This document shows positions 3,459-63,231 of a stretch of DNA of 64,000 bases, piece after piece. This DNA is from Patescibacteria group bacterium (GTDB taxonomy: Bacteria; Patescibacteriota; Minisyncoccia; UBA6257; 2-01-FULL-56-20): the NCBI GenBank assembly GCA_038063055.1, contig JBBTVY010000005.1, forward strand, positions 2,444 through 66,443, in the 5' to 3' direction. How positions within the stretch are numbered: position 1 is the stretch's first letter; each line of letters begins with the position of its first letter. The position numbers and the translations under genes are program-made. Under the pieces are notes generated by a model. It saw nothing but the letters and a program-made list of their open reading frames with translations, was not told where the DNA came from and did not search any database.

Positions 3459-5579
3459 TCATTTTTCCGCGGATTCGGCTGTCTCCCAAATTTCTTTGTT
3501 CACATATTGACTTACAGTTTCAAGGTCATTGAGTAATTTCTCCTCGCGCATCTTTTCCTCCACGGAAAGTTCATTTTTGAGTTTGGCGCGGCGCATTAGG
3601 TCAAGTTCCAATTCTATATCCTTTCGCAGAACGGCGAAACCCCTCTTTATCGAATCCTCGGCGTCCTTGATTGCTTGTTTTAGGCGCTGGTTTTTGAGAC
3701 GGACATGGTAACCATGATAAAGCACGAATGCCAACAACCCCACGAAAGCAAGCGCGAAGATAATGAGTAAAAACAGGTAGAAATCCTCATAACTTAAGCG
3801 GGCGCCGCCTATCTGGATAGCTGTTTTGGCAACCAGGAGGTCGAATTTAGGGCTTGGGGGACTCACATCATTGGCAACTTTAAGCTGTGTCCAAGCAATG
3901 TAGCGGCTGGCTTCCAAAAATCGCGGGAAAGAGTAGAACCAAGCGCCGTTTTCATCGGTAACCGCCACCCGATTTTCCGTGGCTCCGGTGTCAATGTTTT
4001 GCAGATAGATTAAAACCTGGGCTTGGGGCACTCCGGCATTGCCGCCGATATAGAGAATTTCATCATTGGAAATTGACTTTGGGAAAAGAGTTACCACCGG
4101 AGGGTCCAGACGAACGTTGCTTAGAGAATCCTCGGCGGCTTGGGCGTGAAGGGTAAGAATACCGAAATTCACGACAAACATCAGATAAATAAGCATTAAA
4201 CCCTTATCCACGCCCCCTTCGCCGAAGCCAGGGCGAGGAGGCGAGCCGTAATCTTTTTGTTTTTCTTTGAGTTCGGCCAGCTTCCCGGAGATATTGGGAT
4301 GTTTCAAAATGTCCTTGACAAGGTATTTATCGATTTGCAGATGTCGTTTCCAGATCCATATCATTAAATAAACCATTAATCCTAAAAGAGCCAGGGCTAA
4401 AATCAAAACGTATGGCCACCCGAAGGTAACCCCGCCGACACTCAATCCCCCCGAATAGATAACTCCCAAGAAAGGCGCGGTTATTGTAAGTTTGCTCTCT
4501 GCTTGAAAGTAGTTGCCCGCCTGGTCGTAGGCGCGGACGACAATGTCGTATTTGCCTTGGTCTAAAACCCTTGAATATGGCGAATAAGCTTCGATAAAGA
4601 ACGGCGTGGTATTTTGGGCAACCAGGGCTTCCGGCAAATCCAAAGATATAATCTTCAGTTCATAGTGGTTTATCCCGGACACAACATCGGTTGTGACAAA
4701 ATCTATAATCGGGCGGTTGTTGGAAGTAATATGGCCTGGTGAAAAATTAAGTTTGAAAGCGGCAGGCGGCGTGTTATCAACTCGAATCACGTAATCGGTA
4801 ATGCCGCCCCAAGCGCCTTGCCGCAGACTTTTAATGTGGAAATAATAAACGCCGTCGGCAAGATTATTATAAACAACGCGATTTCGCGCTTCCTCCGATA
4901 TGTCATCGGGTTCGCCCCCTGGTTCCTGGTCCAGGACATAGCTGTATCCCTGTATATCGGGCGGCGCCGTCCATTCCAGCGTCACAGTTTTTGTGTTGTA
5001 CCACTTCTCCTGGTCAATGTTAGTGCGGGAAGTGACAGTCGGCCCCTGCGGCGGCGGCAGGGTGAGATAGTAAATCCCGTTCGTAGTTTGGCCCAACGTG
5101 TCAGTTCCGCGGCCGTCATTCAGAAGCACTTTCGAATCATCCAAGATTTTCAAAACGGCAGTACCGGTGCTTTTTACGCGAAAAGTAACGGTGGAAAGCA
5201 AACCGGCGTCGGTGTTGATGCCGGGAGTCGGAATAGTTCCCTGGAACTTAAGCGTGCCGTCGGTATTGGAATAGCTTGGTTGAACGACCCAAATCTGGAT
5301 TAAAGATTTTCCCGTTGTCGGTGAAACCACCTGAAGTTTATCCGCCGGAAAACTTAGGTCCGCCTCAATCGCGTTTATTGCCTGACCGCCGGTATTGACA
5401 TAGATTGAGACCGTAAAAGTGCCGCCTAAGGTAAAAGTTCCCGATGGCGGGGCCACGTAAAGAGAGGCGGCCGCCTCGGCGGAAACTCCGGAGAAAAACA
5501 TAAAAAACGCGGCAAGCAAAATAGCGGTCTTTGCCGCTATCTCGTGGATTTTCGCCAAGTAATTCATGCGTTCAAACAA
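3459..5579 (-). CDS. Membrane-anchored surface protein with N-terminal cohesin-like domain, Ig/FN3-like region, two TM helices and a cytoplasmic coiled-coil tail
   Basis: Signal/TM at N-terminus. Cohesin-like pattern 'LYVAPPSGTFTLGGTFTVSIYVNTGGQAINAIEADLSFPADKLQVVSP...GTDGTLKFQGTIP'. Hydrophobic helices 'YVLILALALLGLMVYLMIWIW' and 'LFLLIIFALAFVGLLAFVLY'. K/E-rich C-terminus. Confidence 0.6.
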   Translation of the reverse strand: MFERMNYLAKIHEIAAKTAILLAAFFMFFSGVSAEAAASLYVAPPSGTFTLGGTFTVSIYVNTGGQAINAIEADLSFPADKLQVVSPTTGKSLIQIWVVQPSYSNTDGTLKFQGTIPTPGINTDAGLLSTVTFRVKSTGTAVLKILDDSKVLLNDGRGTDTLGQTTNGIYYLTLPPPQGPTVTSRTNIDQEKWYNTKTVTLEWTAPPDIQGYSYVLDQEPGGEPDDISEEARNRVVYNNLADGVYYFHIKSLRQGAWGGITDYVIRVDNTPPAAFKLNFSPGHITSNNRPIIDFVTTDVVSGINHYELKIISLDLPEALVAQNTTPFFIEAYSPYSRVLDQGKYDIVVRAYDQAGNYFQAESKLTITAPFLGVIYSGGLSVGGVTFGWPYVLILALALLGLMVYLMIWIWKRHLQIDKYLVKDILKHPNISGKLAELKEKQKDYGSPPRPGFGEGGVDKGLMLIYLMFVVNFGILTLHAQAAEDSLSNVRLDPPVVTLFPKSISNDEILYIGGNAGVPQAQVLIYLQNIDTGATENRVAVTDENGAWFYSFPRFLEASRYIAWTQLKVANDVSPPSPKFDLLVAKTAIQIGGARLSYEDFYLFLLIIFALAFVGLLAFVLYHGYHVRLKNQRLKQAIKDAEDSIKRGFAVLRKDIELELDLMRRAKLKNELSVEEKMREEKLLNDLETVSQYVNKEIWETAESAEK

Positions 5580-6507
5580 GGCGTTTCTTTAAAAATATTA
5601 GTACTATCAACGACAATATTATTATAATCCAAATCAAATTCTGTTTATACCAAGGCTGTGGATACCGGGGCGGCAAAACCGATATTCTTGAATTTCCCGA
5701 TTTATCCACTGCTTTAACAGTTATATCTTTATCAAGCGATTGGTATTTCAAAAGATAGGGGCTTTCGGCGACAATAAAATGGTCGGCTCCTTCTTTTACC
5801 TCATAATGGTCTATGCCGCTTCCTTTGTCTTGGGCGTTGAACGCCAAAAACCATTTCCCATCAAGAACAGATTGGTCGTTGCTTACAATCGGGGAAAACG
5901 GGTCGGGCGGAATCGTATCGGCAGGCAAGAGAAGATTGTCTGCTACGGGTGCCTCGGATATCATAAAACTAAGTGCGGAAACTTTAGTTTTTGCGGCAGT
6001 TCCGAGTCCGTCGTTTAGAAACGCTTTCACGTCTTTCATCGAAATCAGTCCGTCCGTGACCCTATCCCCTTTTACAACGAAAGAAAATAGAAATCCTTTT
6101 ATGCCATTATATCCTCCAGGTATTATGCCGGAAAAGAAAATTTCTCCGTCGCCGGAAAGATGCGGCTTTTCCACCCACAAATTGACTATGGAATTGCCGT
6201 CGTGTATTTCCTTTAAATCGAGAATGTCGTGCGGGAACACAACTTTTCCCTGAACCGCATTTATTCTCTCATAATCGGAATTGAGGAAAACGGATACTTC
6301 GAAAAGCTGTCCCACTGCTGCGGTATTGGCCAGCGATGAAAATTCAAAAGTGGCGGCCCGGGCTGTTGATAATGTGCCAGCCGCGATAGACAAAGCAAGC
6401 AAAAAAGCAACAGCAATACGCAATGTCTGTGAATTTGAAATTTTGAATCTGGAATTTGGCATAAATGATTTATAATTAGAATTCTCTAGTTTTTTTAATA
6501 AAAGCAT
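5572..6507 (-). CDS. Cohesin-like domain protein with C-terminal TM anchor, paralogue of the adjacent gene
   Basis: Signal peptide. 'ATFEFSSLANTAAVGQLFEVSVFLNSDYERINAVQGKVVFPHDILDL' parallels the N-terminus of 3459..5579. C-terminal 'LIWIIIILSLIVLIFL'. 8-nt overlap with the downstream gene. Confidence 0.55.
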   Translation of the reverse strand: MLLLKKLENSNYKSFMPNSRFKISNSQTLRIAVAFLLALSIAAGTLSTARAATFEFSSLANTAAVGQLFEVSVFLNSDYERINAVQGKVVFPHDILDLKEIHDGNSIVNLWVEKPHLSGDGEIFFSGIIPGGYNGIKGFLFSFVVKGDRVTDGLISMKDVKAFLNDGLGTAAKTKVSALSFMISEAPVADNLLLPADTIPPDPFSPIVSNDQSVLDGKWFLAFNAQDKGSGIDHYEVKEGADHFIVAESPYLLKYQSLDKDITVKAVDKSGNSRISVLPPRYPQPWYKQNLIWIIIILSLIVLIFLKKRLV

Positions 6508-6853
6508 TTAGCAACTTATGAACGACAATTGACTGCTTCGAGAGATTGTCAAAATCTTCAGAATTAATATATTTAATGTCCCGCGCTATCAAAATTTGAT
6601 TTTGTAATTCTGTCAACGAGCCATGAGATATTGAATAGAATTGGATTTTCTCTTTCGCAGAATGTCTGGAAAACCCTTCGGCAATATTGGAAGTTATAGA
6701 AACCGCTGCGCGCCTAAGCTGTGAAATCAACCCAAAAGTTTCTTCTCTTGGAAAAGATTTAGTTAAACCATAAATCATTAAAACTAGTTTATGGGATTCT
6801 CTCCATACCTCTAAATCGGTAAATGATTTTATTTTGCTAATGCTATATTCCAT
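6476..6853 (-). CDS. Four-helix-bundle protein (23S rRNA intervening-sequence protein / Avd-like family)
   Basis: 125 aa. Motif 'EVWRESHKLVLMIYGLTKSFPREETFGLISQLRRAAVSITSNIAEGFSRHS' typical of TIGR02436/PF05635. Confidence 0.7.
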   Translation of the reverse strand: MEYSISKIKSFTDLEVWRESHKLVLMIYGLTKSFPREETFGLISQLRRAAVSITSNIAEGFSRHSAKEKIQFYSISHGSLTELQNQILIARDIKYINSEDFDNLSKQSIVVHKLLNAFIKKTREF

Positions 6854-14044: not shown

Positions 14045-15727
14045 TCACGGCCAATCGAACATCTGCGCCGGTATAAGATGCCGTGTCTGCGAATCGTAAT
14101 AAGCGGCGTCTACGGCGTATTTTCCAGGTATCATTTCAGATGTTTTTATCCCGTAATCAGGATTCGCGTCTGGAGCCACAATATCGAATTCCGCCTGCTT
14201 GGTAATCGGGTCGAAATCTTTCGCATAGAGCTGGGCAGAATCAAGAAATGACTTGTCTTGTACTCCGCCAAAGGAAAAGCCATTATCGGTGCCGTTTCTA
14301 TATAACTCGATATCGGCCGGGTAAAGGAAGACATTCAACGATTGTCCATAGAAATCACCGAGATACTGGATTTTAACGTGGACTGTGTCCGCTGTTTTCG
14401 TTATGGAAACGATTGTCGGCGGCGGAACGAACGGCGCGGGAACCGGCGGCGGGATTTCCATTGTCACATTCGGACTTACTTGTATTATCCGCGGCTGTTC
14501 CAGCTCGATATTTGCGGTGTTCGCGAAAGCCGGTGGCACGTCGTAATTGACCTTAAGAAGCATTCCGTCGAGGTATATAACCGGAACAGGGTTAAGGGAA
14601 GTCAGTATTATTTTTGCCTGGATTTGGAGCGTTTTCAACTCGTCCCATTTTGAAACCGGAATTGTCAGTTTAAGGTCGCGCCAGTTCTGCGGGCTAACTT
14701 TTTGAAGCTCAACCCAGTTCTGACCGTCCGTGCTGTAATTTATTTGAATAAAGTTTTCGTCCGGAATCGGAGCTTGAATTGGTATCGCGATGTCCGATTG
14801 CCCGCCCTGCTTGTCCCGAGTTATATCGAGGGGAGCCGCGTCGAAGGGCTCGCCCGAAGAAGATGATTTGGTTGAACTACCTGTTTCCGGAGAATTTTCC
14901 TGCGAAAATATGTTCAGTATGTTCGCGGATTCAAGAGAATCATTTTTTGCGTTTGGAGCTTGGCTCGGCGCGTCTGTTGTTGTAGCATCCGTTGTGTTTT
15001 CACTACTCGCAGAAACGGGTTGTTGCGTAGCCGTGTTGTCTTGCGGTGTTTGCCCGCCGGAAGTCGTTGAAGAAACTTCCTGCGCGAAGGCCTTGTTCAA
15101 AAATTTTGAAAATATATTAAAGAGAAAAGAAGTCGTAGAAGAAGAATTTTCGGGCGTCGAGGTTGGCGTTGTTTCCGGGACGACTGAATCGGAAGAACTT
15201 GGCGATGGCGCCGGCGGAGTTTCTCCGGACGAAATTATTTCTGTTTCGGATTGAACGTTCGTCTGAACGCTCTCCCCTATTTGCCAAACAAGCGACAACG
15301 CGACATTTTTGACATCTCCCTTAACCTCAAAATCGGAAGGAATAAAACTGCCGCAGAAGATAATTTTATCTCCCTCTGAATCAGATTGTCTGTAAACGGC
15401 GGAGTTCGATTCGTTAAACGAAGGGCTGACATTATCAATGGTTTCCGGAAGGCCTTGCGCGCCTGACGGATTTTGCCAGGTTCCAAGGCACGTTGCCGGA
15501 TAGAAATCCGCCAGTTCAGCTTTGGTAAGCACGTTGCGTATCATGAAAGTTCCGCCGATTACGATGGCCACAACCACGAGCAGAAACACGGGGCGATACT
15601 TTTCATAAAAAGAAGGTTTTAAGTTTACCGTAAAATCGTGAAATCGCCGGAAAATACCCCTTGATTTCGGCGCGGGATGGATATCCGAAAAACTGCGAGT
15701 CTGCTTCGCTTTTCCTGAAGCTTTCAT
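14045..15727 (-). CDS. Membrane-anchored protein with long S/T/P-rich low-complexity linker and C-terminal globular domain
   Basis: TM 'VFLLVVVAIVIGGTFMI'; about 150 aa of S/T/P/E-rich sequence. Confidence 0.5.
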   Translation of the reverse strand: MKASGKAKQTRSFSDIHPAPKSRGIFRRFHDFTVNLKPSFYEKYRPVFLLVVVAIVIGGTFMIRNVLTKAELADFYPATCLGTWQNPSGAQGLPETIDNVSPSFNESNSAVYRQSDSEGDKIIFCGSFIPSDFEVKGDVKNVALSLVWQIGESVQTNVQSETEIISSGETPPAPSPSSSDSVVPETTPTSTPENSSSTTSFLFNIFSKFLNKAFAQEVSSTTSGGQTPQDNTATQQPVSASSENTTDATTTDAPSQAPNAKNDSLESANILNIFSQENSPETGSSTKSSSSGEPFDAAPLDITRDKQGGQSDIAIPIQAPIPDENFIQINYSTDGQNWVELQKVSPQNWRDLKLTIPVSKWDELKTLQIQAKIILTSLNPVPVIYLDGMLLKVNYDVPPAFANTANIELEQPRIIQVSPNVTMEIPPPVPAPFVPPPTIVSITKTADTVHVKIQYLGDFYGQSLNVFLYPADIELYRNGTDNGFSFGGVQDKSFLDSAQLYAKDFDPITKQAEFDIVAPDANPDYGIKTSEMIPGKYAVDAAYYDSQTRHLIPAQMFDWP

Positions 15728-15992: not shown

Positions 15993-16126
15993 TTCCGTTA
16001 AATTATAAACGACATTTTGCCTGCCTGCTATTATATCCCGCTTATAACTGGGAGGTTGTCTAACTCGCCCCGCCAAATATAATATGAATTGCCGCCTTTA
16101 ACATATAAGAAACTTCTGCGCATTGC

Positions 16127-16197
16127 TGCGGGATCGTCTAATGGTAGGACACCGGCCTTTGAAGCCGGGTATGATGGTTCGAATCCATCTCCCGCAG
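16127..16197 (+). tRNA. tRNA-Gln (anticodon UUG)
   Basis: Cloverleaf with U1:A72, 7-bp acceptor TGCGGGA/TCCCGCA, anticodon loop CTTTGAA, T-loop TTCGAAT, G73. CCA not encoded. Confidence 0.75.
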
Positions 16198-16357
16198 CAA
16201 TGCGCAGAAGCTCGGGGCAGGAAAAGCTACTTATCCGGATAACACTGCTTGCAGTATTTATAGTTATCGGAGTCGGGCGAGCCGACATAGAAACAACTTG
16301 GAGTGGAAGCGAAAGCGGGAGCGCCGCCTGCCTGTCGGCAGGCAGGTATCCAGAGAA

Positions 16358-27290: not shown

Positions 27291-27755
27291 ATGGTTAAAA
27301 AAGATATTATTATCGCTGCGGCGGCGATTGTCATCGTCGGAGCCGGCTGGCTGTTTTATTCCGGCCAGCGGCAGTTTGTTCAACAGGCAATAACCCAGCA
27401 AACGACGGATGTGTCGGCAAGTGCCGCGCAAGCTAAAAACTTAATAATAGGCCAGTTTAACGTAGCGATGGTGACTTATACCGATAAAGGCTTTTCGCCT
27501 TCGGTCGCTACGATACCAAAAGGAGGGGTGGTTATCTTCGGGAATTTTTCTTCAAAAAATCTGCGAATGGCTTCAAATCCGCACCCCTCGCACGAAGGAT
27601 ATCCGACCACGAACGGCTGCGTCGGAAGCACATTCGATTCATGTAGCAACATTCCTCCAAAAGTTTCCTGGTCGTTTATTTTCAACGTTACCGGCGCCTG
27701 GGGTTATCACAATCATTTAAATCCGGGCATGAGCGGGATAGTTGTGGTTGAATAG
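27291..27755 (+). CDS. Membrane-anchored cupredoxin-like domain protein (possibly degenerate copper site)
   Basis: N-terminal TM; 'FSPSVATIPKGGVVIFGNFS...NPHPSH' and C-terminal 'YHNHLNPGMSGIVVV' resemble a plastocyanin-like fold. Confidence 0.4.
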   Translation: MVKKDIIIAAAAIVIVGAGWLFYSGQRQFVQQAITQQTTDVSASAAQAKNLIIGQFNVAMVTYTDKGFSPSVATIPKGGVVIFGNFSSKNLRMASNPHPSHEGYPTTNGCVGSTFDSCSNIPPKVSWSFIFNVTGAWGYHNHLNPGMSGIVVVE

Positions 27756-29305: not shown

Positions 29306-30727
<1,422 letters not shown>

Positions 30728-30804
30728 ATTTCCCCTAAATTATAAGACTTTTTTAATATTTTCAAATTCTATTTTCTATTTGCTACTTTCTAGATTCTAG
30801 TTTT

Positions 30805-31278
30805 TCACCAATCTATTCTGCCTTCCGAATTAACGCCGATGTCCAGCGACTTTATGCCGTTTGAAACGGAAATTGTTCCGGAAACGCTGGAGCCGGCGTC
30901 CAATGAAGAAAAGGTCAGCTCGTCCGGCCCGGTGAGATTCATGCCGCCCGTCCTGCTGAATATCTCGTCATAGGCGTTGTTTCTTGACGCATAGGTGTTG
31001 CCCTGGAAAATTACGTAACTTAAAGACAGGCCGAAATACACGCCGTGGTTCGATTGATTAACGTTATTTTGGGCTTCGTTGCGGGCTCTTTTAAGGACGG
31101 CCGCTATTGTTTCCCTTTCTGCCCCCAAAATCTTTTGTCTGTAAAAATCCATGCTGAAAATAAGGCCTAAAGAAAACAAAATGCCCATCAATCCGATGGC
31201 TATTAAAATTTCCCACAAAGTGAATCCCCCGCATAAATTCGTTATGTGGGGGATAAACCCCCTTTTATTCTTATCCAT
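30805..31278 (-). CDS. Pseudopilin (GspH/FimT-like minor pilin)
   Basis: 'GG|FTLWEILIAIGLMGILFSL'; start at 31278 (MDKNKRGF) or 31299. Confidence 0.55.
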   Translation of the reverse strand: MDKNKRGFIPHITNLCGGFTLWEILIAIGLMGILFSLGLIFSMDFYRQKILGAERETIAAVLKRARNEAQNNVNQSNHGVYFGLSLSYVIFQGNTYASRNNAYDEIFSRTGGMNLTGPDELTFSSLDAGSSVSGTISVSNGIKSLDIGVNSEGRIDW

Positions 31279-37994: not shown

Positions 37995-38061
37995 AATAGT
38001 AGCATGGTCAGTTTCATAATATCCTAGAGTGGAAATGGTATCTCGATGAAAATATCGTTTG

Positions 38062-38134
38062 TGGGCCAGGAAGGACTCGAACCTTCGATCCTCAAGGTAT
38101 AAGCTTGATGCTTTAGCCGCTAAGCTACTGGCCC
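38062..38134 (-). tRNA. tRNA-Ile with UAU anticodon (reads AUA)
   Basis: Clean cloverleaf GGGCCAG/CTGGCCC, anticodon stem TCAAG/CTTGA, loop CTTATAC (U33, A37), T-loop TTCGAGT, A73. Confidence 0.7.
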
Positions 38135-42536: not shown

Positions 42537-42716
42537 TATAAATATAATAAAGCCCTCCTTCGCATAAAGCTATGGAGGACTACTTCGCTACCCAAAACAC
42601 AGGCTTTTGGTGAATGTTGCTAAAGAATCATAATGTAAGCGTGTGCTTAGCACTACGAAGCTTTAGCGAAGTAGTGCGTCGGGCAGGAATCTCACTACTG
42701 ACTATGCTGCTTGAGA

Positions 42717-42804
42717 TGGTGCGTGGGGCAGGATTCGAACCTGCGTAGCCCATTGGGCGTCAGATTTACAGTCTGATGCGATTGGCCGCTCCGCCACCCA
42801 CGCA
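42717..42804 (-). tRNA. tRNA-Tyr (anticodon GUA), long variable arm, CCA encoded
   Basis: GCGTGGG/CCCACGC acceptor, anticodon loop CTGTAAA, 16-nt variable arm, T-loop TTCGAAT. Confidence 0.8.
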
Positions 42805-42813
42805 CCATCTCAA

Positions 42814-43056
42814 TCAACGGTTTATTAATTTTTTAAAGGCTTCTCCGCCTTTGTATGCTTTTATTTCTCTTTCACGCCCAACTGCCCGGGCGCGAGTTCT
42901 AAAATTCTCTGCATACACTACCTTATATGGCGTACGCGACCTTGTAAAGCGGGAATGGCCTGCGTTGTGTCTTTTTAATCTAGATTTTAAATCACTAGTA
43001 GAACCGATATAATGCGAGCCGTCTTTAAGGCTCTTAATGATATAAACAAGGTACAT
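42814..43056 (-). CDS. GIY-YIG nuclease-domain small protein (second copy)
   Basis: 'MYLVYIIKSLKDGSHYIGSTSDLKSRLKRHNAGHS'; the listed N-terminal extension runs over a tRNA-fragment repeat, so the internal start is preferred. Confidence 0.65.
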   Translation of the reverse strand: MYLVYIIKSLKDGSHYIGSTSDLKSRLKRHNAGHSRFTRSRTPYKVVYAENFRTRARAVGREREIKAYKGGEAFKKLINR

Positions 43057-44164: not shown

Positions 44165-44938
44165 TCAACTTGTTTTTGTTTCCGAAACCGCTTCAGCCGG
44201 TTCCTTCGGCTGGGCAACCACTGCGGCCCTGCCTTCTTTAATCGTTTCACTCATTTTACCCAAAAACCAAATGATGCTTTTTCTCGCCTTTGTGTTTCCG
44301 ACAATCGGGTACTCAACGATTCCAGGGTCTATATCGGTGTTTACGTAAGCGACAACCGGAATTCCGGCACGGTTGGCTTCGAGGACGGCAGTCATGTGCT
44401 GAGTCGTGTCAATGACAATAAGAACTTCCGGAAGGGCGGCGTAATTTTCAAGTCCGCCGAAAAGTTCCTCAAGGCGCCGTAATTCTTTTTCAAAACCAAG
44501 CTGTTCTTTTTTGGTGTATTTCCCCAGGGCGCCGCTTTTAAGTTCCGATTTTAATTTCCTGTAATATTCTATCCTTTTTGAAAGCACTTTGAAATTGGTT
44601 ATAAGCCCGCCGAGCCAGCGCACGTTGACGTACAGCAGATTCAGTTCTTTGGCGAAATCCGTCACCGCGTCGGACGCCTGAGGCTGCGTTCCGACAATCA
44701 TAACCGTTCCCCCGTTCCTGACTTTTTCTTTTACGAATGCGGACGCTTTTTCGAGTCCGTCAACGGTCTTTTGGAGGTTGATTATTTCTATTTCGTTACG
44801 CGTCGTCAGAATGTAGGGCTTCATCCGCGGATGCGTTTTTGTTTTTTTGCGTCCGAGAAAAACGCCCGCCTCGGTCAGGTCTTTGAACGCTCCTTCCGGG
44901 TAAAGGTCGGTTAAATTGTCCTGTTTTGTTTCTTCCAT
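44165..44938 (-). CDS. rpsB: 30S ribosomal protein S2
   Basis: 'LTEAGVFLGRKKTKTHPRMKPYI' S2 signature. Confidence 0.9.
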   Translation of the reverse strand: MEETKQDNLTDLYPEGAFKDLTEAGVFLGRKKTKTHPRMKPYILTTRNEIEIINLQKTVDGLEKASAFVKEKVRNGGTVMIVGTQPQASDAVTDFAKELNLLYVNVRWLGGLITNFKVLSKRIEYYRKLKSELKSGALGKYTKKEQLGFEKELRRLEELFGGLENYAALPEVLIVIDTTQHMTAVLEANRAGIPVVAYVNTDIDPGIVEYPIVGNTKARKSIIWFLGKMSETIKEGRAAVVAQPKEPAEAVSETKTS

Positions 44939-51772: not shown

Positions 51773-51818
51773 GTTAGTTTTTCTTAACGAACGTAAGTGA
51801 GTTTAGAAACAACTTACA

Positions 51819-51929
51819 CCCCGCACCTTTGCTGCAAAAATTCAGAATGCGACCCAAAATAAAGCGGAGCGATTCGCCTGCGGCTTTGTTTTGATTTGTT
51901 TTCATAATCTTTGCCATAAAGGTGCGGGG
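51819..51929 (-). repeat. 12-bp perfect inverted repeat with an 87-nt loop in the rplN-rplX spacer (long structured 5' UTR of rplX)
   Basis: 'ccccgcaccttt' at 51819..51830 pairs with 'aaaggtgcgggg' at 51918..51929; the 193-bp spacer is otherwise atypical in this compact operon. Confidence 0.55.
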
Positions 51930-51965
51930 TTTAGAACTTGTAATTCGCTTCGCTCATAACAATTT

Positions 51966-53988: not shown

Positions 53989-53995
53989 GGTGTTG

Positions 53996-54073
53996 CTAAT
54001 TTACAGATTTTTATGAATATACGAATAAAAATTTTGTTTATTTATAAAATTCGTATATTCGTACTGATTCGTA
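53996..54073. repeat. 78-bp palindromic element in the rpsC 5' UTR, identical to 50626..50703
   Basis: Exact 78/78 match by eye. Confidence 0.85.
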
Positions 54074-54083
54074 ATTTCGCATA

Positions 54084-56854: not shown

Positions 56855-56929
56855 GAAAATTGATTTATGATTTAAGATTTTGGATTTAAGAATAATTATT
56901 TCGTGTTCATAATTCATAAATCATAATTC

Positions 56930-57502
56930 TTAAATCTTTTGTATCTCAAGTAGTCCTCCGCGGGCTCCCGGAACGGCTCCTTTTATCATTAAAATGTTTT
57001 TATCCACGTCGACTCCGGCTACGGTGAGATTTTTGACGGTAACGCGGTCGCCGCCCATCCGTCCGGCCATTTTCCTTCCCGGAAAAACTTTTTGCGGAGC
57101 GGTTGAACCTATCGAACCGGGGGCGCGCAAGCGGTTCTTCTGCCCGTGCGTTTTTGGACCACCATGGAAACCGTGCCTTTTGACTACGCCCTGGAATCCG
57201 CGCCCCTTGGAAACTCCGCTTACTCTGACAATGTCGCCTTCCTTGAAAACGGAAATGTTAACAGCATCGTCAACTTTGAACTTTTCCGCCAGAGGCGGAT
57301 CCGCCTTCGGCGGAGAACTTTGAACTTTGAACTCTCGCTTTCGTTTGCCGAAAGCGAGCTGGACGGCTTCATAACCGTCTTTTTCTTTTGTGCGGACGAG
57401 AGTTACCTTGTTTTTGGAAACTTCAACCAAAGTCACCGGAATGACCTTGTCTTCTTTCCAAATCTGGCTCATGTTCAGTTTTTTGCCCAATATGAAAGAC
57501 AT
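56930..57502 (-). CDS. rplC: 50S ribosomal protein L3
   Basis: 'MSFILGKKLNMSQIW'; internal start preferred. Confidence 0.85.
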   Translation of the reverse strand: MSFILGKKLNMSQIWKEDKVIPVTLVEVSKNKVTLVRTKEKDGYEAVQLAFGKRKREFKVQSSPPKADPPLAEKFKVDDAVNISVFKEGDIVRVSGVSKGRGFQGVVKRHGFHGGPKTHGQKNRLRAPGSIGSTAPQKVFPGRKMAGRMGGDRVTVKNLTVAGVDVDKNILMIKGAVPGARGGLLEIQKI

Positions 57503-57590
57503 CTTGGTTTTCTGCGAAAATCGGTATGTATACGATTTGGCGCATGCCGGAATATTGTATACAAACAAACGGCTCCCGTCAATATGGGTA

Positions 57591-57634
57591 ATAAAAAAAA
57601 TGAATCGCCGGGCTTCCCGAAGGAAGTCCCGGCT
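57591..57634 (-). terminator. Rho-independent terminator on the minus strand, downstream of the inserted 107-aa gene
   Basis: 'gccgggacttccttcgggaagcccggc' followed by 'gattcatttttttt' on the minus strand. Confidence 0.7.
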
Positions 57635-57722
57635 TGATGCTTGGAGATATGTTGATGTACTATAGTATGTCGACTCAATGCCCTCCTCGCTTTTGCATTA
57701 GCCCTTTTTGCCGGATGCTATC

Positions 57723-58046
57723 TTAGAAAGCGTCGATGGCACGAGCTTTTTTCCTTCTCGCCTCCTGGTATTCAGAGGTGCACCGGGTTTTTTCGGCAGC
57801 GATATGGGTGAATAAGTTTTCCCGCCCAGGCAGACCTTGATCCCTGAATTTTTGCTCGAACACATTATGAATGGCGTCATGATTTGCCGGAATGACGGAT
57901 GACTGAACAATGTCCGCCAATGCTGAAAGCACAGCCACATCAATCGTTCTTGTGTTGTGGTCTCTTCTGCCGGATTGGTTGACCCAGTTCGACGTGCTGT
58001 TGACTTGTAACACTATTGCTTCGTGAAACGGTTTCGGCGCTGACAT
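57723..58046 (-). CDS. Hypothetical 107-aa protein inserted between rpsJ and rplC; atypical composition; candidate autoregulated DNA-binding protein
   Basis: Not lysine-rich. Preceded by a canonical AGGAG Shine-Dalgarno (58056..58060) that native genes lack, and by the 18-bp palindrome 'catggcgaatttgccatg' (58069..58086). Has its own terminator. Confidence 0.5.
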   Translation of the reverse strand: MSAPKPFHEAIVLQVNSTSNWVNQSGRRDHNTRTIDVAVLSALADIVQSSVIPANHDAIHNVFEQKFRDQGLPGRENLFTHIAAEKTRCTSEYQEARRKKARAIDAF

Positions 58047-58125
58047 AGCAGGAAACTCCTAATATTCACATGGCGAATTTGCCATGATTATTAAAACACT
58101 AGAAACTAAAAACTACAAGCGTAGA

Positions 58126-58250
58126 TTTTCGGTTTAAGAGAAGCTATCGCAGACACAAAAAGCTTGGTCTCGCGGAGCGAGTTTTTGTGTCGAGATGCAA
58201 GAATGCCCATCCGCTGGAGATGGGCAATTCTGGTTCTCTTAAACCGAAAA
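58126..58250 (-). other. Structured non-coding leader: 17-bp perfect inverted repeat enclosing two nested hairpins
   Basis: 'ttttcggtttaagagaa' at 58126..58142 pairs with 'ttctcttaaaccgaaaa' at 58234..58250. Inner stems gcccat/atgggc and gacacaaaaa/tttttgtgtc. Confidence 0.55.
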
Positions 58251-58262
58251 TTGGAGCCCCCT

Positions 58263-58592
58263 TTAAGCCATTTTTATCTCTATATCAACACCGGCGGGAA
58301 GATTCAGGTTCGAGAGCGATTCTATTATCTTCTGGTTTGGATTGGAGATGTCTATCAGGCGCTTATGTATTCTCAGCTCGAATTGTTCGCGGGAGTCCTT
58401 ATGGACGAAAGTCGAGCGGTTGACGGTAAATCTTTTTATTTCCGTCGGAAGAGGAATCGGGCCGGTAATTTTGGCATCGTTTCTTTCGGCGGCTTCTATA
58501 ATCTGGCGCGCCGAATTGTCTATGAGCTTGTGGTCGTAGGACTTCAAGCGTAAGCGGAGTTTCTGGGGAAGCTCGTTGTCTTTCTTGGCCAT
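58263..58592 (-). CDS. rpsJ: 30S ribosomal protein S10
   Basis: S10 family pattern; follows tuf. Confidence 0.9.
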
Positions 58593-58704
58593 GTTCGTTT
58601 TACTTCATCAGCGAATAACGAATAATTTTCGAATTTACGAATGGATTTCGACTTTGCTCATCATAAATTCGTATATTCGTAATGGATTCGTTATTCGTTG
58701 ATGG

Positions 58705-59904
58705 TTACTTCAATATTTTGGTTACGACACCGGCGCCCACTGTTTTTCCTCCTTCCCTGATTGCGAATCTCTGTTTTTCTTCAAGGGCAACCGGGGAAAT
58801 AAGCTTGCCGGTTACGTTGACTGTGTCTCCGGGCATTACCATTTCCGTTCCTTGAGGGAGAGTCACGTCGCCGGTTACGTCAGTGGTCCTGATGTAGAAC
58901 TGCGGCTTGTATCCCGTGAAAAACGGAGTGTGTCGTCCGCCTTCCTCTTTGCTGAGCACGTAAACTTCGGCTTCGAATTCGGTGTGCGGAGTCACGCTGC
59001 CGGGTTTCGCGATAACTTGTCCCCTCTCGACGTCCTCTTTCTTTAGTCCGCGGAGTAGGATTCCGACGTTGTCGCCCGCGAGCCCTTCATCGAGAAGCTT
59101 GTTGAACATTTCGATTCCCGTGACGACGGTCTTCTGGGTCGGTTTCAGTCCGATTACTTCCACTTCTTCGTTGACTTTTATCCTACCGCGCTCGGCCCTG
59201 CCGGTGACAACCGTACCTCGGCCTTCGATTGAGAAAATGTCTTCAACCGGCATAAGAAAAGGTTTGTCGAGTTCGCGGACCGGCTCGGGGATGTAATCGT
59301 CAAGGGCTTTTACCAAATCCAAAATCGGTTTCGCGTCCGGGTCGTCGGGGGACTTTGCATTCAAGGCCTTAAGTGCCGAACCGCGTATGACCGGGGTGGC
59401 GTCGCCGTCATAGTTGTATTTTTTCAAAAGCTCCCTTACTTCCGATTCAACGAGGTCAATCAGTTCTTTGTCCTCGACCTGGTCTACCTTGTTCAAAAAC
59501 ACGACGATTTTAGGCACGCCTACCTGATAAGCGAGCAGAATGTGCTCTCTTGTCTGAGGCATCGGGCCGTCGGTGGCCGCGACCACGAGAATCGCGCCGT
59601 CCATCTGGGCGGCGCCCGTTATCATGTTTTTGATGTAGTCCGCGTGTCCCGGAGCGTCGATGTGCGCGTAGTGGCGCTTCTCCGATTCGTATTCGGAGTG
59701 GTGAAGGGCGATAGTGATGCCGCGCGCTTTTTCTTCTGGCGCGTTGTCAATCTGATCGATGCCTTCCTCTTTTTTCGCCAGACCCTTCATAAAAAGGATG
59801 TGGGTCATCGCCGCGGTCAATGTGGTTTTGCCGTGGTCGACATGACCTATGGTGCCGACGTTTACGTGCGGCTTGCCTCTTGTAAACTTTTCTTTTTCAG
59901 CCAT
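58705..59904 (-). CDS. tuf: Elongation factor Tu
   Basis: '[10 protein letters not shown]', 'DAPGHADY', 'NKVD'. Confidence 0.95.
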
Positions 59905-60029: not shown

Positions 60030-62135
60030 CTACTTCCTTTTACCCTCGATTATTAATTGCGCGATATTGTTTGGTGTGGGTTCATAACTGCTAAATTCCA
60101 TGCTAAAACTGCCTCGTCCCTGCGTCAGCGAGCGGAGCGCCGTGGCGTAACCGAACATTTCCGACAGCGGGACTTTGGCGTCTATAACTTTGATATTGGC
60201 CCTGTCGCCGATGGTTTCTATTTTGCCGCGCCTGGAATTTATATCCCCCGTTGTTTCTCCGAGAAAGTCCTGCGGGATTATTACCTGTGTTTTCATTATC
60301 GGTTCGAGAATAACGGCTTTGGCGCGCTTGGCGGCTTCCTGAAAAGCCATTGAACCGGCGATTTTGAAAGCGGCCTCCGAAGAGTCCACTTCATGAAATG
60401 AACCGTCGTAGAGCGACACTTCGACGTCAACCACCGGATAGTGCGCGAGCACGCCTCTGTCCAGCGCTTCCTTTACTCCTTTCTCGACGGCGGGAATGAA
60501 TTCGTTCGGGATTATTCCTCCTCTAATCTTGTTAACGAAAACAAAACCCTGTCCGCGCTCGAGCGGCTTTACTTTCAGCCAGACATGGCCGTACTGGCCG
60601 CGGCCGCCGGACTGGCGGATATATTTGCCTTCGGCTTCGGCTTCGCCGCTGATTGTTTCCTTGTATGCGACCTGCGGGCGGCCGACATTGGCTTCGACGC
60701 CGAATTCCCTTTTCATTCTGTCAACGATTATTTCCAAGTGAAGTTCGCCCATGCCGGAAATTATCGTCTCTCCGGTTTCAGGGTCGCCGGCGACGCGGAA
60801 AGTCGGGTCTTCGTCGGCCAGGCGGTGCAACGCGGTACCCATTTTTTCCTGGTCGGCTTTTGTCTTGGGTTCGATTCTGATGCCGATAACCGGTTCCGGA
60901 AATATTATTCTTTCCAGAATTATCGGGGAATCTGGATTGCATATGGTGTCGCCCGTACCCGTGTTTTTCAATCCGACTATGGCGGCTATTTCTCCGGCGT
61001 AAACTTCTTCCACTTCTTCGCGCTGGTTGGCGTGCATCCTTACGATACGCCCGACGCGCTCCTGCTCGCCTTTTGTGGCGTTCAAAACGTAAGAGCCGCG
61101 CTTAATAACCCCCGCGTAATTCCTGAAATAAGTCAGACTGCCGACGTAAGGGTCGTTCGCTATCTTGAAAGCGAGAGCGGTGAACGGTTCTCCGTCATCC
61201 GCCTTTCTGAAAATTTCTTCTCCTGTTTTTAAATCGATTCCCTTGACCGGTGGCAAATCCGAAGGCGAAGGAAGATAATCGACTACCGCGTCCAGAACCA
61301 GCTGAACTCCTTTATTCTTCAGCGCCGAACCGGTGAACACCGGAATTATTTTGTTTTCGATAGTCGCTTTTCTCAGGGCGCGCCTCAGGTCGTCGATGTG
61401 AATTTCTTCTCCGGCAAGATATTTTTCCATGAGCGCGTTGTCGTTGTCGACAACTGCTTCAATCAGTTTCCGGCGATATTTTTCCATATCCGCTTTCATT
61501 TCTTCCGGAATCGGTATTTCAACGACGCGCTCGCCGTGTTCTCCCTGGAATTCGAAAGCTTTCTTTTGCAATAAATCGACGAGCCCGCGGAAATTTGATT
61601 CCGAGCCGATTGGCAGCTGGACTGGAAAAGCGCAGTTGGTCAGGCGCTCTTTTATGGAAGCCAGGCTTTTTTCGAAACTCGCGCCCATGCGGTCCAGTTT
61701 GTTTATGAAGCAGACCCTCGGAACTTTGTATTCTTCGGCGTAATGCCAGTTCGTTTCCGACTGCGGCTCCACGCCGGCGACGCCGTCGAAAACCACCACG
61801 GCTCCGTCGAGAACGCGCAACGAACGCTTTACTTCAACGGTGAAATCGATGTGACCCGGAGTGTCTATGAGGTTTATGCGGTATTCGAAATTTTTGTCGC
61901 CGTCGCGGTAAGTGGGAACCCAGAAAGCGGTTGTGGCCGCGGCGGTAATGGTAATGCCGCGTTCCCTTTCCTGCTCCATCCAGTCCATGACCGTGTCGCC
62001 CTCATGCACTTCTCCGATTTTGTGCGAAACGCCGGTGTAAAAAAGAACGCGTTCGCTGACGGTGGTTTTTCCCGCGTCAATGTGGGCGATTATTCCTATA
62101 TTCCTTGTTTTTTCGATGGGATATTGTCTGGGCAT
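60030..62135 (-). CDS. fusA: Elongation factor G
   Basis: 'AHIDAGKTT', 'DTPGHIDF' and EF-G domains. Confidence 0.95.
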
Positions 62136-62696: not shown

Positions 62697-62796
62697 AAGA
62701 TTAAAATTCGAAATTACAATATCGAAATTCTAAACAATATTTAAATTACAATTATTCAAACGTTTAAAATTTGAGATTTGAAACATTGGAATTTGT

Positions 62797-63231
62797 TTAG
62801 GATTTAGAATTTCGTGCTTCGGATTTCGGCCGTTTTGCTCCATACTTTGACCTCTGCTGCTTTCTACCTTCGACGCCTGTCGTGTCGAGGACGCCGCGAA
62901 CTATATGATAGCGGATTCCCGGCAGGTCTTTTACGCGTCCGCCGCGGATAACAACGATTGAGTGCTCCTGCAACTGATGGCCTTCACCGGGAATATAAGC
63001 GGTCACTTCCATGCCGTTTGTCAGCCGCACGCGGGCGACCTTCCGGAGAGCCGAGTTCGGCTTCTTCGGAGTGGTGGTGAAAACTTTCAGGCAAACCCCT
63101 CTTTTGAACGGCGAGCTGGAATATACGGGACGATTATCAATGGTATTGAAATAATACGACAAAGCGGGCGATTTCGTTTTTGATTTCGTCTTTTTTCTGC
63201 CTTTCTTTATGAGTTGGGTTACTGTCGGCAT
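62797..63231 (-). CDS. rpsL: 30S ribosomal protein S12
   Basis: '[12 protein letters not shown]...'; short basic C-terminal extension. Confidence 0.9.

Follow-up and report, generated by a model that had tools for sequence, protein, structure and literature searches.

What occupies the 760 nucleotides (nt) between rpsJ and rplC, the genes of ribosomal proteins S10 and L3, in contig JBBTVY010000005.1 of a Patescibacteria group bacterium (assembly GCA_038063055.1)? A preliminary description of the 64,000-nt stretch analysed here (the window) had read this interval as a horizontally acquired, foreign-looking gene with its own structured leader RNA, inserted between two genes that are normally adjacent. 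The interval itself was described correctly (57503-58262, on the minus strand, like all genes in the region), and three of the analyses then proposed, namely of covariation in the RNA structure, of rpsJ-rplC synteny in related genomes and of the structure of the encoded 107-residue protein, have been carried out and are reported below. The answer towards which we lean is that the spacer is a composite of three independent units, i.e. a structured RNA element, a cassette around an open reading frame (ORF) for 107 amino acids (aa; ORF107), and a promoter of rplC. Read along the minus strand, the rpsJ stop is followed by an inverted repeat with two hairpins, a T-rich stretch, a palindrome, the string AGGAG, ORF107, a terminator and a promoter-like site for rplC. 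The first unit reaches well beyond this locus: it is a widespread, covariation-supported structured RNA that Rfam 15 lacks and that prefers the first bases past the stops of core genes. Patescibacteria make up a large share of bacterial diversity, are almost uncultured and have a nearly unknown RNA biology, and this RNA gives concrete access to the question of how messages are ended, processed or stabilised in these reduced genomes.

In the window the RNA consists of a closing helix (P1) and two arms (P2 and P3), laid out as follows:

58119-58254, minus strand: structured RNA element, found with covariance model R1 (136.7 bits), beginning 9 nt past the rpsJ stop
58234-58251, minus strand: 5' strand of the closing helix P1, 18 base pairs (bp) and perfect, from inverted-repeat search and fold
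58200-58231, minus strand: P2 hairpin with one bulged U and the loop C-U-CCAGC-G-G (CCAGC at 58213-58217), from folds
58143-58198, minus strand: P3 arm with the stem ACACAAAAA/UUUUUGUGU and ACCAAGC conserved on the 3' side of its internal loop, from alignments
58125-58142, minus strand: 3' strand of the closing helix P1, from inverted-repeat search and fold

The perfect inverted repeat with two hairpins reported earlier is thus present, with 18 bp instead of the 17 claimed, and P1 is one of the three most perfect inverted repeats of the window, the others being the stems that flank tRNA-Gln and tRNA-Tyr. The conserved strings GCAUCUC and CGAUAGC form the junction at P3, where CUC pairs with GAU. 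The whole rpsJ-ORF107 spacer (216 nt) folds at -85.1 kcal/mol (z = -7.5) and the element alone (133 nt) at -58.2 kcal/mol (z = -8.6), a value that none of 200 shuffled sequences equalled.

The structure of this RNA is under selection. An initial covariance model was built from four copies, in which RNAalifold found compensatory changes at 29 of 43 pairs; this model recovered ten further copies in a set of 80 rpsJ loci from other species of Patescibacteria, whose S10 proteins are 63-85% identical to that of the window. Among the 11 copies found by the model alone, 92.9% of the cells of the alignment are paired, against 41-48% in slid controls, and none of 500 shuffles reaches the covariation score. 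A second, larger sample came from metagenomes, in which at least 120 stretches match a degenerate pattern of the conserved strings (no match was found with the same pattern in viral contigs); the covariance model confirms 82 copies in 80 of the metagenome loci matched in this way. The search pattern biases these copies in three conserved strings, not in the helices. The 81 distinct copies show 91.6% of cells paired against 37-47% in slid controls, again with none of 500 shuffles reaching the score. In both alignments alike, 38 of the 43 pairs in the three helices have changed on both sides, and the covariation score is 0.70-0.87 as compared to 0.06-0.20 in the controls. Within this total, 11 of the 13 pairs of P2 covary; in the P3 arm, 91-100% of the cells of helices 3-5 are paired, and 13-14 of the 16 pairs there have changed on both sides.

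The consensus that emerges combines a P1 of 14-18 bp, a junction AC, a P2 of ~13 bp in which a U is bulged and whose loop reads C-U-CCNGC-G-G (CCNGC in 11 out of 11 copies found by the covariance model alone), a junction YCUC whose pairing partner is a GAG or GAU in the 3' junction CUSCGAKA, and a P3 that ends in a variable distal hairpin and has an internal loop with ACCAAGC (or ACCAUGC) on its 3' side. P1 is present in all copies; in other genomes it is shorter and imperfect (84-89% of cells paired). The copy closest at hand for comparison, that of locus L012 (loci are designated by L and a number), differs from the copy in the window by compensatory changes in all three helices, while the strings GCAUCUCG, ACCAAGC and CGAUAGCU are kept. 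A search for pseudoknots by mutual information between unpaired columns returned only an outward extension of P1.

None of the catalogues holds this RNA. Scanned against Rfam 15 at the gathering threshold, the whole window yields three tRNAs only; at E <= 10 the region 57400-58750 yields nothing over 58119-58254, and the related copies in 20 loci yield tRNAs only. In the literature searched, on RNA motifs of Patescibacteria/Parcubacteria and more widely, we found no description of it, although there may be one elsewhere. A larger conserved RNA of ~300 nt, of which the element is the distal part, occurs in about nine loci (L157, 2890-3330; L119, L171, L131, L142, L122, L134, L173, L170). It has a closing stem, a hairpin GGGCA-NNN-UGCCC on the 5' side, GAGCG repeats on the 3' side and, also on the 3' side, a likely pseudoknot of AAAUUCC with GGGGAAUUU; this larger RNA likewise has no match in Rfam.

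The RNA also has a marked preference in position. It lies directly after rpsJ (L012, L018, L020), after fusA (L028, L044, L099) or after rplC (L078, L059), near the edge of the locus in L033 and L094, and inverted between rpsJ and rplC in L022; of the 11 copies in str-S10 loci, 10 are oriented as the operon. Outside this cluster the pattern extends to genes of quite different function: the genes 5' of the RNA encode S10, elongation factor EF-G and L3 as well as FtsZ, ClpP, GyrA, a peroxiredoxin (AhpC), a release factor, DnaB, RpoD, S18, HtrA and adenylate kinase. By a crude gene call, 20 copies begin at most 32 nt (typically 2-16 nt) past the stop of a co-directional gene, whereas only 6 copies have a convergent gene whose end is equally close to their own 3' end. 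Some loci hold two copies, and these are always convergent, i.e. plus and then minus (L106, 6703-6848 and 8164-8314; L163, 9860-9993 and 10030-10166, just 36 nt apart); further convergent pairs lie in L097 (112-261 and 502-639) and L168 (1338-1477 and 3025-3164).

The second unit, and the promoter-like site that forms the third, are made up of the following features:

58090-58118, minus strand: promoter-like site of ORF107, TTGTAG (58113-58118), 17 nt, TTTAAT (58090-58095), putative and read from the sequence
58069-58086, minus strand: palindromic box CATGGCAAATTCGCCATG, symmetric at 8 of 9 positions, beginning 3 nt past the -10-like hexamer
58056-58060, minus strand: Shine-Dalgarno motif AGGAG, 9 nt before the ATG at 58046
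57723-58046, minus strand: ORF107, 107 aa, with ATG at 58046
57593-57633, minus strand: intrinsic terminator after ORF107, with an 11-bp G+C-rich stem with one bulge (57607-57633) and U8 (57593-57600)
57554-57582, minus strand: promoter-like site of rplC, TTGACG, 17 nt, TACAAT, matching the consensus at 10 of 12 positions, from a promoter scan

ORF107 is the sole ORF with supported coding status in the spacer, and its ratio of nonsynonymous to synonymous substitution rates (dN/dS) relative to the ortholog in L001, 0.215 with synonymous sites near saturation, indicates that it is a real gene. The signals around it are shared with relatives at other sites, which bears out the earlier view of a self-contained small gene with promoter-like hexamers, box and Shine-Dalgarno motif of its own. 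Five genes of the family have the same layout (TTGCGC/TTGCAT/TTGTAG, 17 nt, TTTAAT/TTTGAT/TTTAAA), and a box of the form yGGCA(A/C)ATT(C)GCCAT stands 3-4 nt past the -10-like hexamer in L009 (TCGGCACATTCGCCATA) and L014 (TCGGCAAATTGCCATT), and in a looser form in L001 and L012. Given that ORF107 shares only 29-38% identity with its relatives in L009 and L014, this conservation of the box is meaningful and supports the operator-like reading that had been given to the palindrome. As a hairpin the box would fold at -8.8 kcal/mol. When up to 3 mismatches are allowed, the window contains no second copy of it except for one chance match with 3 mismatches. A Shine-Dalgarno-type motif (AGGAG, GAGG, GAGGAAG) precedes the start by ~3-9 nt in every family member examined. 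In the window such a motif (GGAG, GAGG or AGGA) before the first start codon is found for ORF107 and for one other among ~65 ORFs, so that the AGGAG is real and rare, not exclusive to this gene as had been stated.

How might these units work? If the composite reading holds, the RNA would be transcribed as the tail of the tuf-rpsJ message and serve as an element of its 3' untranslated region (3' UTR), bound by protein or processed, with its invariant single-stranded C-rich nucleotides binding a conserved partner. The perfect P1 duplex may be a processing site, by analogy with the 20-21 bp duplexes that flank two tRNAs of the window, and cleavage there would either release a stable RNA of ~100 nt or set the 3' end and the stability of the upstream message. 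Such an RNA would be akin to those that are excised via a leader-trailer duplex, for instance at ribosomal RNA (rRNA) processing stems or as small RNAs from 3' UTRs, in its probable co-transcription with a highly expressed upstream gene and in its 18-bp closing duplex; it differs from them in that P1 is shorter and imperfect elsewhere and in that processing is here a prediction only. The cassette would comprise a weak sigma-70-type promoter, the palindromic box at the transcript start, AGGAG, ORF107 and the intrinsic terminator, with the palindrome as a candidate operator for negative control, most simply by ORF107 itself, and rplC would start from its own promoter. That ORF107 binds the box is a guess, its predicted fold not being a known DNA-binding one. 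Only tentatively do we go further and propose that the element behind rpsJ stands for a class of structured RNAs not described so far, one that is widespread in Patescibacteria, sits in housekeeping 3' UTRs and is released or acted on there. Its members might cleave themselves or serve as scaffolds for proteins, and in this way set the boundaries of messages where genes largely lack Shine-Dalgarno motifs. The CUCC that recurs unpaired in them, namely in the loop of P2, in the 3' junction and, for a minority of copies, also on both sides of the element, might be bound by a dedicated protein, by Rho or by RNAs that contain GGAG, of which the ORF107 message is an example.

Several observations weigh against this picture. 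One of the 11 str-S10 copies is inverted; the 5' neighbour is divergent in 20 of the 63 cleanly intergenic copies; and a strict terminator within 130 nt downstream is found for only 8 of 84 copies, a frequency on which we also rejected the terminator as a regular companion of the RNA, i.e. the RNA as a pre-terminator module. G-U pairs are rare in the alignment (40 cells) and A-C mismatches commoner (92), P2 and P3 together having 12 G-U against 44 A-C cells, so that the test for a strand-specific signal (G-U exceeding A-C) came out negative; moreover, the antisense strand folds more stably than the sense strand in 79 of 93 copies. These data fit an element that acts at the level of DNA, or an antisense RNA, as well as they fit a C-rich sense RNA (the sense strand holds 33% C and 24% G), and the strand bias could simply reflect C-rich single-stranded segments. 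As to the cassette, the promoter of ORF107 is weak, with a poor -35 hexamer, and was not called in the consensus scan; the palindromic box may act as an RNA hairpin and not on DNA, the register of its stem being different in L001; and the model of ORF107 has no recognisable DNA-binding fold, neither helix-turn-helix nor ribbon-helix-helix. Transcription, processing and termination are, furthermore, all deduced from the letters of the genome. For the RNA, we favour the sense strand as the functional one, because the orientation follows the neighbouring gene and because the sense strand is certainly transcribed inside ribosomal operons.

The strongest alternative, although we regard it as unlikely, is that the element is a selfish or structural DNA repeat, similar to a miniature inverted-repeat transposable element or a folded single-stranded DNA site, which has no function as RNA and survives in intergenic DNA. 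Its ~130 bp with long terminal inverted repeats, the presence of more than one copy in several loci, the scarcity of G-U relative to A-C and the ability of both strands to fold would suit such a repeat, and the CTCC-like strings that flank P1 (in 17 and 14 of 89 copies, versus 2 and 5 in control windows) could be remnants of target sites. A search for a target-site duplication around the RNA gave no clean direct repeat, an empty site for comparison not being at hand. Bacterial repeats like ERIC, Correia/NEMIS and REP/BIME share with the element the length of ~130 nt, the terminal inverted repeats, the intergenic position just after ORFs and the occurrence of several copies in some genomes. However, such repeats are near-identical within a genome, whereas copies of this RNA from the same locus are 38, 47 and 55% identical (and 79% in one pair) at a mean of 46% between loci, their structure being kept by compensatory changes and their unpaired nucleotides in loops and junctions being kept across distant genomes. 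The 64-kb window contains a single copy, even with search filters off. This single copy and the divergence within loci argue against a recently spreading repeat. There is, in addition, no associated transposase, the orientation follows the neighbouring gene (20 copies versus 6), and viral contigs lack the element, so that we favour selection acting site by site on the structure and on the unpaired nucleotides. A related comparison is that with integron attC sites, which are also folded imperfect palindromes a few bases past the stop of a preceding gene. Here, unlike in integrons, what precedes the element is no cassette but an essential housekeeping gene of a conserved operon, and the internal loops are conserved in sequence, whereas those of attC are not. 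Among the neighbouring genes examined no integrase was seen, nor were RYYYAAC/GTTRRRY cores seen by eye, no systematic search having been made.

What, then, is ORF107? The earlier statement that the 107-aa protein belongs to no recognisable family stands. Pfam, NCBIfam, PHROG and PADLOC hold no family for it, the best matches being at the level of chance (in PADLOC Cas10_Id, E 0.012, 12.1 bits, over 49 of 795 profile positions; in PHROG phrog_17572, E 0.33), and searches of PDB sequences and Pfam with all family members tried gave nothing. A word-indexed search recovers nothing beyond the identical protein and an ortholog from a Liptonbacteria genome; an exhaustive profile search yields 27 clusters at E <= 1e-3. 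About 24 of them are true family members, small proteins with lengths of 80-186 aa, and three (P0011, P0017 and P0024) are long repeat proteins, rejected as artefacts that arise from the summing of weak matches. Three motifs mark the family (80-190 aa), an N-terminal KPFHExIV(D), a central IPxNHDAI and a HIxAEKxR close to the C-terminus, and ORF107 has all of them (KPFHEAIV, IPxNHDAI, HIAAEKxR). In 25 sequences H56 never varies and F7, H81, E85 and K86 hardly do; H8 and D57 are conserved as well. From an alignment of 28 sequences AlphaFold2 builds a confident model (predicted local distance difference test, pLDDT, 95.4; predicted template modelling score, pTM, 0.82) of four helices at 7-20, 30-48, 56-69 and 76-106, whereas a prediction from 2 sequences told nothing (pLDDT 58.7). 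Foldseek returned nothing for this model at E < 0.4. ORF107 thereby adds a confidently modelled four-helix fold that has no structural relative and that comes with a conserved promoter and operator-like site.

With this in hand, the suggestion that ORF107 belongs to a conflict system, as an antitoxin, an anti-defence protein or an abortive-infection regulator, appears more doubtful still than a DNA-repeat origin of the RNA. ORF107 is small, fast-evolving and patchily distributed, and, like autoregulated repressor or antitoxin cassettes, it combines a promoter, a palindrome over the transcript start, a small ORF and a terminator; furthermore, P0031, a remote member of the family, is part of an island that also contains HicA, SocA/Panacea and a diversity-generating retroelement. 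Unlike such cassettes, it has no match in family or structure and no toxin partner: the spacer holds no partner ORF, and Pfam, PADLOC and NCBIfam no toxin-antitoxin family for it. A phage origin was rejected as well, since there are no relatives in IMG/VR and no structural match among viral models. Other family members stand beside ordinary genes: in GCA_900218045.1 two paralogs lie 6 kb apart near lepA, a DUF4012 gene and a Mur ligase gene, and another member adjoins genes of sugar metabolism. The roles first envisaged for the protein (antitoxin, Abi-like regulator or ribosome-associated factor) thus receive no backing from a partner gene, a defence or toxin-antitoxin match, a phage relative or a specific structural match. 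We infer instead an accessory gene, possibly self-regulated, in a variable spot.

The view of the 760 bp as one horizontally acquired unit, in which the RNA is the cis-regulatory leader (riboswitch-like or protein-binding) of ORF107, we consider very unlikely. It can draw on the two genomes (that of the window and L012) in which RNA and ORF107 ortholog share one spacer, on a predicted fold in which CUCC just 5' of P1 can pair with the AGGAG of ORF107, and on a ribosome site that is unlike those of the host genes. However, the two parts occur without each other. None of the 80 S10 loci, ten of which hold the RNA, contains an ORF107 relative; more than 90 copies of the RNA have no such relative nearby, are followed by unrelated genes or none and are not consistently upstream of one class of genes; and in L001, L009 and L014 a relative of ORF107 is present and the RNA is absent. 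Even where they co-occur, in L012 (GCA_030699605.1, S10 90% identical), the RNA lies directly after rpsJ and is parted from the ORF107 ortholog by a terminator and, at 5345-5950, just before that ortholog, a 201-aa gene with an MGS-like domain (Pfam PF02142), and in the window the promoter-like site that relatives have in common lies between the two. RNA and ORF107 are unrelated parts of one spacer, and the former is not the leader of the latter. The foreign composition that had been claimed for the insert does not hold either: ORF107 has a G+C content (GC) of 0.491 overall and of 0.537 at third codon positions (GC3), where the 61 ORFs of the window average 0.471 +/- 0.048 and 0.515 +/- 0.079, and in lysine content (the protein had been called non-lysine-rich) it ranks 16th among them. 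Of the proposed horizontal acquisition, what remains is a patchy distribution that fits an accessory gene, with orthologs in the rpsJ-rplC gap of three close genomes, none in the 80 loci and relatives elsewhere in other genomes. Within this lineage ORF107 was inherited at the site and not recently acquired, since two other genomes, L012 and the Liptonbacteria metagenome-assembled genome (MAG) L001 (S10 94% identical, without the RNA), hold the ortholog in the same place.

To see how the spacer fits its surroundings, the genes that flank it have to be listed as well:

60030-62135, minus strand: fusA, part of the str-S10 ribosomal cluster
58705-59904, minus strand: tuf, part of the str-S10 ribosomal cluster
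58263-58592, minus strand: rpsJ (ribosomal protein S10), from the ORF list and from Pfam Ribosomal_S10 on an identical contig, with the RNA element in its 3' UTR
56930-57502, minus strand: rplC (ribosomal protein L3), with ATG at 57502, first gene of the downstream unit

On the 3' side rplC is followed by rplD, rplW and rplB of the same cluster and strand; the identical contig occurs in assemblies of the Hainich groundwater samples ERZ1292629 and ERZ1292632 and is labelled as a Patescibacteria MAG. The rpsJ-rplC junction is a variable spot in this clade, with different cargo per genome, and hence a site at which the most conserved gene cluster of bacteria tolerates the arrival of accessory genes. 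In 65 related loci that have both genes their distance is mostly 70-250 nt; the full range is 70-2480 nt, and in 12 loci the gap is 635-2480 nt, so that the earlier description of the two genes as normally adjacent has to be qualified. The larger gaps contain unrelated ORFs in either orientation (L017, L018, L020, L022, L025, L034, L046, L064, L083), among which are small membrane or exported proteins (L017, L018), a coiled-coil ORF (L025) and, as judged from its sequence, a 304-aa aldo-keto-reductase-like ORF (L064).

The same comparison changes the meaning of the terminator behind ORF107. That it is strong was stated correctly, for its hairpin folds at -21.7 kcal/mol (z = -4.6), with the U8 beginning 6 nt past the stem and a partial call in the terminator scan, and homologous hairpins stand 3' of the ORF107 orthologs in L001 and L012. 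The decoupling of rplC that was ascribed to it is, by contrast, a rule of the clade and not an effect of the insert: most relatives have a terminator-like hairpin UAGCC...GGGCUAnnCCC with a U run directly before rplC, and termination between rpsJ and rplC is for this reason not a disruption. The rplC promoter-like site leaves a 51-nt spacer to the start codon, which would give a leader of ~45 nt if transcription starts 7 nt after the -10 hexamer. L001 and L012 have a longer conserved rplC leader behind a TTGACA-type promoter, in place of which the window has this short one. The leader of the relatives (L001, 6290-6445; L012, 6660-6790; most of L019-L096) is attenuator-like, as an upstream UAGCC can pair with the GGCUA inside the terminator hairpin (GGGCUAnnCCC and U run); a second type starts with CUAGUUAAAGUCCC, and in five loci that were scanned (L012, L018, L020, L028, L033) no Rfam family was found for the rplC leader. 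P2 of the window copy (58205-58228) contains UUGCCCAUCUC...AUGG, as does the start of the rplC leader in L001 (~6331-6355) and L012 (~6691-6715), which may be chance or a shared binding site.

That the RNA is instead an autoregulatory leader of the rplC-rplD operon, mimicking rRNA to bind L4 or L3 like the E. coli S10 leader, is hardly credible: although it lies inside the str-S10 cluster in 11 loci, has a three-way-junction architecture of the kind that is common among binding sites of ribosomal proteins and resembles the E. coli leader (which acts by L4 attenuation) as a structured RNA with an intrinsic terminator in the S10 cluster that is able to separate the expression of neighbouring ribosomal genes, the E. 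coli leader is specific to its operon and precedes rpsJ, whereas this RNA follows rpsJ, fusA or rplC without being consistently upstream of one gene, also follows ftsZ, clpP, gyrA, ahpC, dnaB, rpoD and others, matches no leader family of Rfam and is parted from rplC in the window by a gene, a terminator and a promoter, while relatives have a different conserved attenuator-like hairpin directly before rplC.

Some further identities of the RNA were considered and rejected. RNase P RNA was suggested by the string GGGCAGGGUGCC, which lies in the 5' flank of the larger RNA that encloses a subset of copies; there is no Rfam match to RNase P at E <= 10, and what the string forms is a small hairpin, GGGCA-NNN-UGCCC, whose sequence differs from copy to copy. 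The size, the three-way junction and the string CGAGAG are reminiscent of 5S rRNA, signal recognition particle RNA, 6S RNA or known ribozymes, which the lack of Rfam matches, the several copies in some loci and the variable distal hairpins speak against. A BoxA-like antitermination site, which the 3' strand of P1 resembles, was discarded since P1 covaries freely, and an RNA for processive antitermination was discarded on account of the four loci with convergent pairs of copies (L106, L163, L097 and L168), which abut in L163.

The window shows a number of further peculiarities. AT-rich imperfect palindromes with arms of 33-52 nt lie between ribosomal genes (58606-58703, 53994-54081, 56862-56929, 62709-62828, 51815-51933 and 30679-30806), the first of which, between tuf and rpsJ, and the second are made of repeated TACGAAT/ATTCGTA heptamers; Rfam gave only chance microRNA matches for such palindromes. 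The two tRNA genes mentioned above lie within inverted repeats of 21 bp (tRNA-Gln at 16127-16198, perfect, region 16113-16210) and 20 bp (tRNA-Tyr at 42717-42803, 95%, region 42708-42816), which lengthen the acceptor stem by ~9-14 bp into leader and trailer and suggest an unusual processing of the precursors; no CCA is encoded after tRNA-Gln. A tRNA-Ile gene at 38061-38134 has the anticodon UAU, instead of the usual bacterial solution for AUA codons, i.e. CAU with lysidine. Several genes of the window have TATAAT 6-7 nt before the ATG (for instance those with starts at 15727, 10274, 30727 and 42289 on the minus strand and at 27291 on the plus strand), which suggests leaderless messages, and the start regions of the other genes that lack a Shine-Dalgarno motif are A/T-rich. 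Finally, the string AAATCTGTAAATTAG(T/C)AAC directly precedes three start codons on the minus strand, at 44938, 50618 and 53988.

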